Below, one piece after another: positions 47,813 to 51,581 of a DNA stretch of 64,000 nt. The translations under genes were made by a program, and so were the position numbers. The notes under the pieces are model-generated. The model ran no database searches, was not told the origin of the DNA, and saw nothing but the letters and a program-made list of their open reading frames with translations. Each line of letters opens with the position of its first letter. Position 1 is the stretch's first letter. Source of the DNA: a phage; the NCBI GenBank assembly GCA_014913405.1, contig GCA_014913405.1_3931.1. One strand, written 5' to 3'.

Positions 47813-48988
47813 ATGGCAGTAGGTGAAATTCAAATTAGTGCCTTGCCACAAGCGGCCTTACCAGTTGATTTGAGTGATATCTTCCACCTTAAGCAAGGTG
47901 TTGAGGATAAAAGATGTACGCTTGAGCAGTTGTTAGCACCTCACGCATCTTTGAGGAATAACCCTCATGGTGTAACTAAATCACAAGTAGGTCTTGATAA
48001 TGTTATTAACTCTCTTCAATTAGTTGCAGCTAATAACTTGTCAGATATTGTAAGTGTTGCTGAGGCAAGAGCAAATCTACAAATTATGTCGTCAGAGGAA
48101 GTGAATAACTTAATTCAGCAACATATTGACGACAAAAGTAACCCACACAATACAACGAAAGCACAGGTTGGTTTAAGTAATGTTCAGAACTGGACAACAT
48201 CTAATCTGTACAATGAAGATGCTGATAAGTATGCTACCGCGAAAGCAGTTAATAATTTATACAAAGCTATCCAAGCGTCATATCCAGTAGGGACTATTCA
48301 TCTATCTGTTAACTCTGCTAACCCATCCACTTACTTGCTTTGTGGAGGTACTTGGGAGTTAGTTTCTAAAGGTAGAGCACTAGTTGGTTATGATACAGAT
48401 TCTAGACCTGTTGGTTCAACGTTTGGTTCTCAGACTGTAGCATTAACAAATAATAATTTACCAGCACATACTCACTCTATCTATCTAACAGGTGGTGGTC
48501 ATACACACTCTGCAAGTGTATCTATCTCTAGTTTTGATTATGGTTCAAAAAGTACATCAACTTTTGATTACGGTACAAAAACGACTAATAGTGCTGGTGC
48601 TCACACTCACACGTTTAGTGGCACAACAAGTAATGCTGGTAACCACAACCATAGAGTCCCTATGAGGGGTAATGATAGGGGTGGCACAAACGCTATTACT
48701 GCATCTGCTGATGCTGGTGTTGGTAATGCTATGTATACTGATTTAGCTGGTGCTCACACCCATAGCTTCTCAGGTACAACTGCATCATCTGGTGCTCATA
48801 GCCATACTGTCGCAATTGGTGCTCACAGCCACACTGTTAATATTGGTTCGCACAGTCATACAGGCACTGTTACTGTTTCTAGCTCTGAGCATACACACTC
48901 AGGGACATCTGGTTCTGTTGGTGGTGGTCAAGCTTTCAGTGTTGAGCAGCCATCTTTTGTAGTGTATGTGTGGCAGAGAACAGCTTAA
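47813..48988 (+). CDS. Tail fibre with His-rich repeats and collar-type C-terminus
   Basis: Repeated (A/S)H(T/S)H(S/T) motifs; C-terminal GGGQAFSVEQPSFVVYVWQRTA. Confidence 0.7.
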   Translation: MAVGEIQISALPQAALPVDLSDIFHLKQGVEDKRCTLEQLLAPHASLRNNPHGVTKSQVGLDNVINSLQLVAANNLSDIVSVAEARANLQIMSSEEVNNLIQQHIDDKSNPHNTTKAQVGLSNVQNWTTSNLYNEDADKYATAKAVNNLYKAIQASYPVGTIHLSVNSANPSTYLLCGGTWELVSKGRALVGYDTDSRPVGSTFGSQTVALTNNNLPAHTHSIYLTGGGHTHSASVSISSFDYGSKSTSTFDYGTKTTNSAGAHTHTFSGTTSNAGNHNHRVPMRGNDRGGTNAITASADAGVGNAMYTDLAGAHTHSFSGTTASSGAHSHTVAIGAHSHTVNIGSHSHTGTVTVSSSEHTHSGTSGSVGGGQAFSVEQPSFVVYVWQRTA

Positions 48989-48997
48989 TTTCTTTAC

Positions 48998-49018
48998 AGG
49001 GGCTATAAAGCCCCTTTT
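48998..49018 (+). terminator. Hairpin plus T-run between the two fibre genes
   Basis: GGGGCTATAAAGCCCC followed by TTTT. Confidence 0.5.
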
Positions 49019-49034
49019 AAGAGGAAAATTCATA

Positions 49035-51581
49035 ATGGCAGATTACAAATTGAGTCAATTAAACTCAATCGACACAATTCGTTCAGAAGACCTATTGCAC
49101 ATCAGAGTTAAGAAAAGACCTGAAATGTTGGGTGACGAAGACCGTAGAATGACCTATCAAGACTTCTTAGCTTCCTTCAAACTAGAAAGGTTTGTTCAGA
49201 TTGCTGGGAGTACTATGGTTGGGGATTTAGGTATTGTCAAGTTACTTTACGGTGGTAAGGCAGTATTTGACCCAACAGGCTCTTCTGAGATTACTATTGG
49301 GGATATTTTAAAGACTTTTAAAATTAACTCAAATGGGCTTAAACTCACTATTGCAGATGCCACAAGGTCGGCAACTGTTTATCATACTTTGAATAAACCA
49401 AGCCCTAATGAACTTGGTATGAGAACTAATGAAGAGAATGATGCAAGATATGCAAGGCTTGCTGTTACAAACACATTCTCTGGAACTCAGAACATTCAAG
49501 GTGATGCTAACTTACTTCGTCTTAGAAACCAGAATGCAAATAATGCGCAATATATTGAGGGTGTGAACTTAGATGGTTCAGCTAGATGGTGGGTTGGTAT
49601 TGGTAGTAATGGCTCTGATGAAGTAAAACTGTACAATAACAAATACAACTCAGCTTTGACTATTGCAAGCAATATCTCTGTTAATAAGTCTTTAGCAATC
49701 ACTGGACAAGTTCAACCTTCAGACTTCTCTAACTTAGATGCTAGATACTTCACTCAGACAGTTGCTAATCAGAGATTTGCACAGTTAGCTGGCAATAATA
49801 CTTTTACAGGTGCTAACACTTTCACTAACCTTGTTGCTAAGAAGAATGCTAATGCCATTACTTTGCAGAATACTGATGCAAATACAGCACTTTACATTCT
49901 CGGTAAGAAGTCTGATGGAACAAATAAATGGTATGTTGGTACAGATTCTGACGAGACACGTCTAAACATTTATAACTACCTTACAGGTTCACAGGTTTCA
50001 CTAGGTACTACTATTGGTATCAATAAAACTGTGCAAATCACTGGACAAGTCCAACCTTCAGATTGGGCTAACATTGACTCTAGATATATTCCGGTAGCAA
50101 CATTAAGTACGATTGCAAGAACTAATGCAAGGAATACTTTTAATGGTGTACAGACAGTTGTTACGGATAATGAAGGTCTGATTGTTAAAAACTCTACTCA
50201 GAATAGACCATTATATATTCGTGGTGTGGACACTACTAATGTATCAAGATGGTGGATTGGTGTTGGTGGTGTTGATACGAGTGATGTTACCCTAAATAAC
50301 AGTTATTCTGGAACCCAATTGGTTCTCGGGAATACAACATCATACATTAACAAAACATTGACTATTGCTGGACAAGTTCAACCTTCAGATTTCTCTAACT
50401 TAGATGCTAGATACTTTACGCAAAGTGCTAGTGATAGTAGATACCTAAGAATCAGAAGCACTAGCTTCAATGTGGGAAACACTGATAAGTGGGCTAAAAT
50501 TGCCACTGTTGTGATGCCACAATCAGCATCCACTGCTGTTATTGAGGTATTTGGTGGGTCAGGTTTTAATATTAATACACCAAACCAAGCAGGTAAATGT
50601 GAAATTGTTCTGCGAACTTCAAATAACAATCCAAAGGGCTTAAATGTTGTTGCTTGGAGAACATCAGAGAACACCATTATCAGGGATATTGGTTATGTGA
50701 ATACTTCTGGAGACACCTATGATATTTACTATCTTGCTGGTACGTATCAAAACAGCACAACGACAAGGGTTCAGTCTTCTAGTAATGCAAGTGTACAGTT
50801 GTTTGAAGTCCCACAGACATTTGATGATGCTCCACAAGGTATTGTGAAGGGTACAATTGCAAAATACTACACAAGTTTGCAAAAACCAACCCCTTCAGAT
50901 ATTGGTGCATACACTAAAGCAGAAACTGACCAGAAGATTGCAGAAGCAATTAGTGACTCTACAGACCTGAATAAAATCTATCCAGTAGGTATTGTGACGT
51001 GGTTTAACAGTAATGTCAACCCAAACACAGCACTTCCTGGGTTAACTTGGACGTACCTGAACAATGGTGTTGGTAGAACTATTAGAATTGCAGCAGCAAA
51101 CGGTTCAGATGTTGCTACAACTGGTGGTTCAGACTCTGTAACGTTATCTGTTGGTAACTTACCTTCACATACACACGGTTTCTCTGCTACCACTTCATCA
51201 TTTGATTATGGTACTAAGACTTCTAGCACAACTGGTAACCATAACCACAACAGAGGTACTATGGAGATTACTGGTTCATTTGGTTACTTCAGGAGTGACA
51301 CTAGTAGCTTCTACACAGCAAGTGGTGCATTCCACCTCGGTAGTCAGGCAGGTTCTAAAGGGTATACTGGTAATAACTTTACTAATGGTATCCCTGTCAA
51401 CTTCAACGCATCAAGAAACTGGTCTGGTGTAACGAATACAACAGGTAACCACAGCCACACTGTTGGTATTGGTGCTCACAGCCACACAGTTAGTGGTAAC
51501 ACTGGTGGTACTGGTTCTGGTTCAGCATTCAGTGTTACTAACCAGTTCTATAAGTTAATGGCTTGGGTAAGAACTGCTTAA
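49035..51581 (+). CDS. Large tail fibre with three internal repeats and the same His-rich C-terminal domain (start moved from track 48966)
   Basis: ATG at 49035 with GAGG SD; repeats ITGQVQPSDFSNLDARYFTQ; C-terminal ...FYKLMAWVRTA. Confidence 0.7.
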   Translation: MADYKLSQLNSIDTIRSEDLLHIRVKKRPEMLGDEDRRMTYQDFLASFKLERFVQIAGSTMVGDLGIVKLLYGGKAVFDPTGSSEITIGDILKTFKINSNGLKLTIADATRSATVYHTLNKPSPNELGMRTNEENDARYARLAVTNTFSGTQNIQGDANLLRLRNQNANNAQYIEGVNLDGSARWWVGIGSNGSDEVKLYNNKYNSALTIASNISVNKSLAITGQVQPSDFSNLDARYFTQTVANQRFAQLAGNNTFTGANTFTNLVAKKNANAITLQNTDANTALYILGKKSDGTNKWYVGTDSDETRLNIYNYLTGSQVSLGTTIGINKTVQITGQVQPSDWANIDSRYIPVATLSTIARTNARNTFNGVQTVVTDNEGLIVKNSTQNRPLYIRGVDTTNVSRWWIGVGGVDTSDVTLNNSYSGTQLVLGNTTSYINKTLTIAGQVQPSDFSNLDARYFTQSASDSRYLRIRSTSFNVGNTDKWAKIATVVMPQSASTAVIEVFGGSGFNINTPNQAGKCEIVLRTSNNNPKGLNVVAWRTSENTIIRDIGYVNTSGDTYDIYYLAGTYQNSTTTRVQSSSNASVQLFEVPQTFDDAPQGIVKGTIAKYYTSLQKPTPSDIGAYTKAETDQKIAEAISDSTDLNKIYPVGIVTWFNSNVNPNTALPGLTWTYLNNGVGRTIRIAAANGSDVATTGGSDSVTLSVGNLPSHTHGFSATTSSFDYGTKTSSTTGNHNHNRGTMEITGSFGYFRSDTSSFYTASGAFHLGSQAGSKGYTGNNFTNGIPVNFNASRNWSGVTNTTGNHSHTVGIGAHSHTVSGNTGGTGSGSAFSVTNQFYKLMAWVRTA

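Follow-up and report, generated by a model that had tools for sequence, protein, structure and literature searches.

Two adjacent tail fibre genes of a Felix O1-like phage

Within a stretch of phage DNA of 64,000 nucleotides (nt) (GenBank assembly GCA_014913405.1, contig GCA_014913405.1_3931.1; termed here the window) lie two adjacent genes, one for a short tail fibre (STF) and one for a long tail fibre (LTF). The interpretation favoured here, to which a probability of roughly 0.9 is assigned, is that these proteins are the two lateral fibres of a Felixounavirus virion, that both end in tips of the T4 gp37 type, and that the conserved joints between their variable parts double as crossover points for recombination between phages. 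The original prediction, which was made from the letters of the window, held that two fibres share a His-rich, receptor-binding-type C-terminal domain, that the larger one contains internal repeats, and that these features provide substrates for recombinational host-range switching.

The predicted identity of both genes as tail fibres agrees with profile matches and with existing annotation: the STF matches PHROG 2097 (tail fiber, E = 1e-138), the LTF matches PHROG 4277 (1357 bits over its full length), and the counterparts of the STF and LTF in phage wV8 are annotated as tail fibre proteins 82 and 83, the STF gene being 98% identical in nt sequence to wV8 gene 82 ('tail fiber protein'). The region from 47500 to 51700 matches 241 phage records (megablast), the best of which, E. 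coli O157 typing phage 1 and wV8 (Felixounavirus), are 98.3-98.4% identical to it over the full 4.2 kb; judged from these matches, the phage of the window is a Felixounavirus, that is, a Felix O1-like phage of E. coli O157. A map of open reading frames (ORFs), set against wV8 and 20 other loci, reveals the STF-LTF synteny of Felixounavirus. Fibre lengths (391 and 848 amino acids (aa)), gene order, the hairpin between the genes and the types of head at the fibre tips are all the same in wV8 and typing phage 1 as in the window. The differences from wV8 amount to a few substitutions, except within LTF aa 61-260 (49215-49815), where nt identity is only 90-95%; almost all of the LTF gene outside this region is 97-100% identical, with one interval of 20 codons (aa 701-720) at 90%. 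The divergence of aa 61-260 looks like a small patch of recombination even between the two closest phages.

For comparison, fibre loci were taken from a further 21 phages, of which 20 are Ounavirinae and one is the T-even phage ZQ3, and from one metagenomic contig; most of the alignment statistics given below are based on 18 phages. The parts of both genes, together with the features between them, are collected in Table 1.

Table 1. Positions of the fibre genes, their domains and associated features in the window (HMM, hidden Markov model; HxH, two His residues separated by any one residue; pLDDT, predicted local distance difference test)
Feature	Position	Strand	Basis or remark
STF gene, 391 aa	47813..48988	+	Equivalent of wV8 gp82, Bas63 gp26, Sf14 gp52
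STF N-terminal part, aa 1-135	47813..48217	+	Highly conserved among 18 relatives
STF collar domain, His-free, aa 136-216	48218..48460	+	Pfam Gp10_C; aligns with T4 gp37 (2XGF) collar
STF needle and head, aa 217-362	48461..48898	+	HxH positions; 2XGF alignment
STF variable head, about aa 281-313	48653-48751	+	Variability among relatives
STF C-terminal tail (...GGGQAFSVEQPSFVVYVWQRTA)	48899..48985	+	Nearly invariant in 18 relatives
Intergenic hairpin GGGGCT-ATAA-AGCCCC	48999..49014	+	Followed by TTTT to 49018; whole is GGGGCTATAAAGCCCC+TTTT
Shine-Dalgarno sequence AAGAGG	49019-49024	+	10 nt upstream of LTF ATG at 49035
LTF gene, 848 aa	49035..51581	+	Equivalent of wV8 gp83, Bas63 gp27, Sf14 gp53
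LTF N-terminal conserved region, aa 1-145	49035..49469	+	88% mean pairwise identity, 18 relatives
LTF module 1, aa 146-255	49470..49799	+	Variable cassette and conserved linker ITGQVQPSDFSNLDARYFTQTVANQRFAQLAGNNTF; HMM E = 2e-45
LTF module 2, aa 261-367	49815..50135	+	HMM E = 1.5e-41
LTF module 3, aa 367-476	50133..50462	+	HMM E = 6e-44
LTF middle domain, all-beta, aa 477-615	50463..50879	+	Alignment; AlphaFold2 pLDDT 67-93
LTF collar domain, aa 616-708	50880..51158	+	88% mean identity among relatives
LTF needle and head, aa 709-819	51159..51491	+	HxH positions; 2XGF match
LTF variable head, 65 aa, aa 739-803	51249-51443	+	Variability among relatives
LTF C-terminal tail (...GSGSAFSVTNQFYKLMAWVRTA)	51492..51578	+	90% mean identity, nearly invariant
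LTF tip substitutions G715, T756, H767	51177-51179, 51300-51302, 51333-51335		

A gp37-type tip common to both fibres

Residues 136-342 of the STF align with residues 622-819 of the LTF at 31% identity over 221 aa (BLASTP with composition adjustment, E = 3e-16). One might attribute this likeness to composition rather than to common descent, inasmuch as both C-termini are rich in His, Gly, Ser and Thr, with a short Pfam 'Phage_fiber' repeat near threshold. When, however, STF 136-391 was aligned with LTF 622-848 by the Smith-Waterman algorithm and compared with 1000 shuffles, the z-score was 17.8 overall, 11.4 for the His-rich part, 12.7 for the last 32 aa and 9.2 for the collar, which is free of His; no shuffle attained the observed score, whether for the whole C-terminus, the collar, the His-rich part or the tail. 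The shuffle tests rule out a composition artefact as the source of the similarity and, together with the composition-adjusted E-value and the fact that each fibre independently matches one solved structure (2XGF), they leave that explanation a negligible probability. The C-termini of the STF and LTF are homologous by every one of these sequence comparisons: the similarity that the original prediction had proposed lies far above significance, and the sequences do contain the segments that it had pointed to, namely GAHSHTV, GNHNHN and the termini ...EQPSFVVYVWQRTA and ...TNQFYKLMAWVRTA.

The structure in question, 2XGF, is the tip of T4 gp37 (residues 785-1026). STF aa 145-362 match its residues 17-227 (phmmer, E = 1.8e-26) and LTF aa 709-827 match its residues 104-218 (E = 7.3e-7). 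The collar, needle and flanks resemble those of gp37, with which the boxes FDYGTK and GIGAHxHTV are held in common; gp37 differs in having seven HxH motifs and another head. The STF collar also matches Pfam PF21939 (Gp10_C; 67.6-73.2 bits, cut-off 27) and aligns with the C-terminal domain of T4 gp10 (2FKK, 5HX2; E = 5e-20), the LTF match to this domain being borderline; gp10 differs in being a baseplate wedge protein that lacks a His needle. The matches to 2XGF and Gp10_C bear out the view that a receptor-binding-type domain is common to both fibres. Its earlier description as a 'His-rich collar-type' domain, on the other hand, is half right: the term collar fits the His-free part upstream of the needle and does not fit the His-rich needle itself. 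Pfam PF07484 (tail collar, T4 gp12 type) gave no match at E <= 0.01 with the whole proteins or at E <= 1 with fragments.

Beyond the collar, both needle strands, outgoing and returning, bear HxH motifs. The STF has nine of them between aa 219 and 360 (four outgoing, five returning) and the LTF has four (aa 712 and 736 outgoing, aa 806 and 815 returning). Between the two groups of HxH motifs the LTF head retains a mean identity of 31% among relatives, versus 84-90% for its flanks, and the STF follows a similar pattern. By analogy with 2XGF and with the structure of phage Bas63 determined by cryo-electron microscopy (cryo-EM), each tip would be an intertwined homotrimer that holds metal ions, with six His residues per site. 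In T4 the fibre is built from four proteins, of which gp37, dependent on gp38 and gp57A, makes up the distal quarter; here, by contrast, the gp37-type tip is fused to a single-protein fibre. No gene for a folding chaperone was recognised among the immediately neighbouring ORFs (for which only baseplate or unknown-function PHROGs were matched).

The architecture of these fibres and their shared gp37-type tips are already known, among others from published work on wV8. The Felix O1 genome paper (PMC3185647) and the VpaE1 paper (PMC4690856) both reported gp37-like C-termini on the two fibre proteins. Cryo-EM of Bas63 revealed an STF of 430 Å and an LTF of 630 Å, both with a T4 gp37-like collar, HxH needle and head, as well as repeated beta domains in the LTF separated by helix-turn motifs, the tips and repeat domains being the most variable parts (PMC12609058); cryo-EM of Sf14 revealed the same two fibres (PMC11821841). 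Thus Bas63 and Sf14 resemble the window in having two fibres per baseplate position, gp37-like tips and conserved helix-turn linkers within the long fibre. They differ from it in certain details: Bas63 has seven HxH motifs on the STF and six on the LTF, whereas the window has nine and four, along with a larger, 65-aa LTF head; and the Bas63 and Sf14 papers count five beta-helix domains where three sequence repeats are found here.

Putative attachment regions and repeat modules

By analogy with the Bas63 cryo-EM structure (PMC12609058), the N-terminal part of the STF is probably its region of attachment to the baseplate. It contains a two-copy motif of its own, NPHxxTKxQVGLxNV, at aa 50-64 and 110-124 (47960-48004 and 48140-48184), the copies being 60 aa apart. 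The N-termini of the STF and LTF share no significant sequence similarity (shuffle test, z = 1.6).

The LTF contains exactly three copies of a repeat module, as detected by an HMM built from 53 modules of 18 phages; the best additional matches, which would correspond to a fourth, degenerate module in the LTF or to any module in the STF, have E = 0.2-0.7 and are not significant. GQVQPSD anchors at aa 224, 337 and 446 define periods of 113 and 109 aa, and the modules are 38-42% identical to each other (E = 3e-21 to 2e-30). Pfam PF20744 (gp37_trimer) likewise matches three times, at aa 159-247 (117.4 bits), 273-360 (61.6 bits) and 380-465 (99.8 bits), relative to a cut-off of 21.7. The HMM and the PF20744 matches corroborate the three internal repeats of about 110 aa that had been proposed for the larger fibre. 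The repeats were said to be centred on the motif ITGQVQPSDFSNLDARYFTQ, which is incorrect: the motif is located within the linker, at the C-terminal border of each module.

Distal to the modules is the middle domain, which is without a Pfam family and whose sequence is 30-49% identical to part of the shaft in many gp37 proteins of T-even phages. Relatives have at least three unrelated domains in its place, the non-homologous alternatives at this position numbering at least three or four. One of the alternatives is annotated as T7 gp17 C-terminal-like (Mordin, VpaE1), and another is common to the gp37 of a Proteus T4-like phage. For the cassettes and the middle domain, no homologue of solved structure (gp34 included) was found by sequence in the PDB at E < 0.2. 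An AlphaFold2 monomer model of the whole LTF has a mean pLDDT of 51.7, within which the cassettes and middle domain are all-beta with pLDDT of 67-88; a sub-model of aa 372-615, which comprises cassette 3 and the middle domain, attains 76.4. Foldseek neighbours of this sub-model are WceF (6TGF; E = 1.8e-7, template modelling (TM) score 0.44) and T7 gp17 (4A0U; E = 8.7e-4, probability 1.0). In other words, the C-terminal domain of T7 gp17 and the N-terminal domains of WceF are the best neighbours in fold, at the low TM-scores of a monomer model; the domain in the window differs from T7 gp17 in being an element of the shaft rather than a distal tip. A T7 gp17-like domain was also noted by the Sf14 authors (PMC11821841) and in the Mordin annotation.

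Mosaicism of the long fibre among relatives

Within the LTF, conserved and variable blocks alternate. Mean pairwise identity is 88% for the N-terminus, 80% for linker 1, 88% for the collar, 84% for the outgoing needle and 90% for the last 45 aa; it is 44%, 37% and 32% for cassettes 1, 2 and 3, 27% for the middle domain and 31% for the head. At the borders of modules, nt identity to the window falls from 97-100% to about 43% within a single interval of 20 codons and returns just as abruptly. In phage HY02, for example, the N-terminus, collar and head agree with those of the window at 97-100% identity, and all three cassettes at only about 43%; BPS15Q2 has cassette 2 of the window (95-97% nt identity), without its cassette 1 or head; and FO1a has cassette 1 but lacks the window's cassette 2, middle domain and head. 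Cassette alleles that are almost identical (95-100% aa identity) recur in different combinations across phages, which amounts to independent reassortment, and each form of the middle domain occurs with each type of head, giving all four combinations. Moreover, cassettes can change position: cassette 3 of PHB11 is 76% identical over 74 aa to cassette 1 of Henu12, the best matches at the same position being 49% identical.

The number of modules may vary as well. The LTF of the Salmonella phage S19cd (695 aa; fetched locus L008, 5536-7623) has exactly one repeat unit fewer: its cassette 2 is joined via ITGQVQPSDFSNLDARFLKVSG to the middle domain that in JK55, EcSzw-2 and SapYZU01 comes after three cassettes. 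Similarly, P0056, a metagenomic wV8-type LTF of 740 aa (ENA ERZ1505402 NODE_674; fetched locus L022, 4001-6223), has two cassettes, joined through a linker to a middle domain and head of the window type. In both cases the missing unit is module 3 and the junction falls inside the conserved linker, although each of these two-module fibres comes from a single short-read assembly, so that an assembly artefact is possible. All three linker motifs were found, by regular expression, in 107 of 118 full-length LTF matches; among the other 11, P0056 alone is one unit shorter, the remaining ten (842-844 aa) being assumed to carry linker variants. In the Bas63 paper, by comparison, the repeat number was constant among the species exemplars compared, whereas two two-module fibres are found here.

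These patterns argue for recombination, rather than drift, as the origin of the LTF mosaic. The contrary explanation is that the diversity of cassettes and heads merely reflects point mutations accumulated in tolerant regions, with no recombination and no role for the joints; indeed, mutation is the first possibility listed by the Bas63 authors for the variable beta-helix repeat regions (recombination was not considered; PMC12609058), and the cassettes, as surface-exposed all-beta domains, may tolerate change. Yet abrupt switches in nt identity within 20 codons, near-identical alleles in different combinations, the out-of-register match between PHB11 and Henu12, and a head held in common with a T-even phage (described below) all count against accumulated point mutations, which are for this reason very improbable as the explanation. 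With respect to the phage group as a whole, therefore, the proposal that fibre modules are substrates for recombination fares well, insofar as identity switches at module borders, a unit has been lost and a cassette has moved; as a statement about substrates within the genome of the window it is not supported, as is discussed further on.

Heads shared between phages and their association with host genus

The LTF head of the window also occurs in gp37 of the Mosigvirus vB_EcoM-ZQ3 (fetched locus L021, 729-3869), at 88.7% nt identity over 284 nt and 73% aa identity over 129 aa, and this match is bounded by FDYGTK and GIGAHSH. Its nt identity and its boundaries mark the ZQ3 head as a case of horizontal transfer between Ounavirinae and Tevenvirinae. 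The Felix O1 head, too, is found in other kinds of phage, namely T4-like and P2-like Salmonella phages. A precedent exists among the T-even phages, for which recombination at conserved motifs has been reported experimentally to swap adhesin specificity (Tetart 1996, 1998, insofar as this work is recounted in PMC3157838). The fibres described here resemble the T-even adhesins (Tetart; Trojet et al. 2011, PMC3157838) in that variable segments are flanked by short conserved crossover motifs, and one head of the window is actually shared with Mosigvirus gp37; they differ in that T-even recombinants were demonstrated experimentally while the present evidence is comparative, and in that shaft cassettes and two paralogous fibres are involved as well.

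Comparison among related phages, which the original prediction had suggested for phages of different host range, reveals that head types track the host genus, the labels being those of isolation hosts. The LTF head of the window occurs in 60 records, mostly from Escherichia (mostly O157) and Shigella; its STF head occurs in 60 phage records, again mostly from Escherichia and Shigella and largely the same records as for the LTF head. Of the 86 records that contain the Felix O1 head, 80 are from Salmonella, and most have it in both fibres (145 places).

Possible exchange between the two fibres of one genome

A further question is whether recombination between the fibre genes of a single genome, or among the three repeats of its LTF, is frequent enough to make them a device for switching host range. 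Within the window, the two tips are 30% identical over the needle and head, and the heads themselves are unrelated; at the nt level, the longest exact word shared by the STF and LTF tips is 20 nt (with about 43 nt at 86% identity), and the longest shared by the three linkers is 26 nt. Because of this low identity between the tips, the unrelated heads and the short longest word, the two genes are poor substrates for each other, and host-range switching through the two fibres and repeats of this very genome, as originally proposed, is not supported. The locus also lacks the hallmarks of dedicated switching systems, such as the invertible segments of Mu (G) and P1 (C) and the diversity-generating retroelements: both fibre genes are on the same strand, inverted repeats are limited to two pairs of 16-17 nt, with no long ones, and no invertase or reverse transcriptase was found among the neighbouring ORFs (which include the baseplate, td and frd genes), to which that search was confined.

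Among the Felix O1-type Salmonella phages the situation is different. One and the same head, GGRYGGDSIGGK(H/Q)RVQVSG..., is present on both fibres of FO1a, BPS15Q2, SP116 and SapYZU01, with 71-84% aa identity between STF and LTF over 80 residues, and in phages of this type about 270 nt are common to both fibre genes at 77-82% identity. In FO1a, nt 748-1017 of the STF and nt 1981-2250 of the LTF are 81.6% identical over 271 nt and share exact words of at least 40 nt; over a head core of 105 nt, the STF and LTF of FO1a differ from each other at 5 positions, as against 13 differences from other STFs and 21-22 from other LTFs. Moreover, synonymous sites of the head core co-vary within each genome. 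This pattern points to gene conversion between STF and LTF, in this sister clade and not in the window.

The shared segment, long exact words and co-varying synonymous sites of these paralogues speak for exchange within a genome, and the two long fibres that are one unit short, with their junctions in a linker, speak for recombination between repeats. Against a switching device of this sort are the 20-nt and 26-nt longest words, the unrelated heads and weakly similar needles, the nearly constant number of repeats, and the absence of long inverted repeats and of neighbouring genes for an invertase or reverse transcriptase. Since the tip and linker DNA is of low identity, the genes are on one strand and no long inverted repeats exist, a programmed or frequent in-genome switch is unlikely, and the idea as a whole is given a small probability, if a somewhat greater one than accumulated point mutation. 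The likely route, as the mosaic patterns suggest, is instead exchange between phages at the conserved flanks.

A more ambitious generalisation is that the conserved joints act as general recombination joints: that cassettes both reassort and shift register there; that in the Felix O1 clade a head core of about 100 nt has been converted between STF and LTF within a genome, both fibres then carrying the same Salmonella-specific head; and that the wV8 clade, which includes the window, retains two different heads that are inherited as a pair. The chances that this generalisation holds are about even. No description of such a general role for the conserved fibre joints was found in the accessible literature.

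Proposed mechanism and its significance

The favoured interpretation, namely two lateral fibres with gp37-type tips whose joints are also crossover points between phages, can be spelled out as follows. The STF would consist of an N-terminal part, which attaches to the baseplate, followed directly by the tip; each tip would begin with a collar of the gp10/gp12/gp37 kind and continue as a needle formed by an outgoing and a returning stretch of the chain. HxH motifs contributed by three chains would bind metal ions, at nine sites in the STF and four in the LTF, and the small head formed where the chain turns would contact the receptor, which for this group of phages is presumably lipopolysaccharide. 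The LTF would have an attachment part of its own, then a shaft of three PF20744 modules, each composed of a variable all-beta cassette and a nearly invariant linker, and, distally, a middle domain akin to a segment of the T-even gp37 shaft, followed by a collar, needle and head, the head being different from and larger than that of the STF. The linkers, the collar, the flanks of the His boxes and the last 45 or so aa would be conserved for folding and trimerisation and, as a by-product, would be the sites at which co-infecting phages recombine cassettes, middle domains and heads. Over evolutionary time, such exchange of modules would reassort receptor specificity. Of this picture, the homology, the number of modules, the mosaicism and the link between head type and host genus are shown by the present data, and the trimer, the binding of metal, the receptor and the actual mechanism of recombination are inferred.

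Several points weigh against this interpretation. Structural constraint fully accounts for the conservation of the joints, and a role 'for' recombination is inseparable from it. The match of the LTF collar to Gp10_C is borderline (26.5 bits with the whole protein and 27.2 with a fragment, at a cut-off of 27). The tip has a pLDDT below 50 in the AlphaFold2 monomer, and trimerisation and metal binding are proposed by analogy. T4 gp34 (4UXG) matches the LTF at E = 0.018 and probability 0.44, and does so only on the low-confidence full model; it is not among the top Foldseek matches of the better sub-model (aa 372-615), and the likeness of the cassettes to the P-domain repeats of the gp34 rod (4UXG, 5NXH), as claimed for Bas63, is thus not reproduced with monomer models. 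Finally, the association between heads and hosts depends on the host labels in the records, which denote isolation hosts rather than host ranges.

The window itself adds little that is new: its fibre genes are 98% identical to the long-annotated wV8 genes, and in 2025 cryo-EM resolved this architecture in close relatives. Its practical value is instead that of a parts list, in which the ITGQVQPSD... linkers, FDYGTK and GIGAHSHTV mark natural crossovers and suggest themselves as places to splice when Felix O1-type phages are engineered against E. coli O157, Shigella or Salmonella. The two-module LTFs and the conversion of heads between STF and LTF, if true, would refine the picture of fibre evolution in the Ounavirinae; the published picture credits the variability of cassettes to mutation or to unknown selection.

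Gene boundaries, the intergenic hairpin and neighbouring genes

Both ORFs are located where they had been predicted, although the long fibre was taken to be 871 aa in length. The start of the LTF is at 49035, where a ribosome binding site precedes the ATG, giving a product of 848 aa. The alternative start at 48966, which yields the 871-aa protein, is rejected: it is without a ribosome binding site, its extension crosses the hairpin, and it arises from mechanical extension of the ORF. The frame upstream of the LTF ATG is closed within 0-9 codons in 12 of 17 relatives. A fusion of STF and LTF by frameshift or read-through is likewise unsupported, because the open upstream frame is not conserved.

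The intergenic hairpin is annotated as a rho-independent terminator in the wV8 and AYO145A records. All 18 phages retain its stem, both sides of which have undergone changes (for example, AGAGGG/CCCTCT in BPS15Q2). It was not called by a simple terminator scan, because only four T residues follow it. Conceivably, the hairpin could set the ratio of STF to LTF expression.

At the LTF tip, G715, T756 and H767 take the place of the S, A and Y found in wV8, HY02 and the O157 typing phages, and 35 of 37 homologues have serine at the position of G715. Such changes in the needle and head may be adaptive. No substitution in the LTF of the window is strictly private among 37 homologues, and a protein 100% identical to it exists in the public database, where it is annotated in an Escherichia coli genome assembly. 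The window probably stems from a whole phage genome that is present as one contig of a bacterial assembly.

The order of genes is that of a Felix O1-like myovirus: upstream are genes for the baseplate hub, spike and wedge, then a Baseplate_J-like gene, a 284-aa baseplate protein and an ORF of 100 aa; these are followed by the STF, the hairpin, the LTF, two small ORFs and, on the opposite strand, td (thymidylate synthase) and frd (dihydrofolate reductase). Certain of the records that match this region appear to be mislabelled: vB_EcoM_I14.1 is filed under Tequintavirus yet carries a Felixounavirus fibre locus, and 'Staphylococcus phage SA1', two 'Campylobacter' records and a fragment of one 'Enterococcus phage' also match the enterobacterial fibre region.

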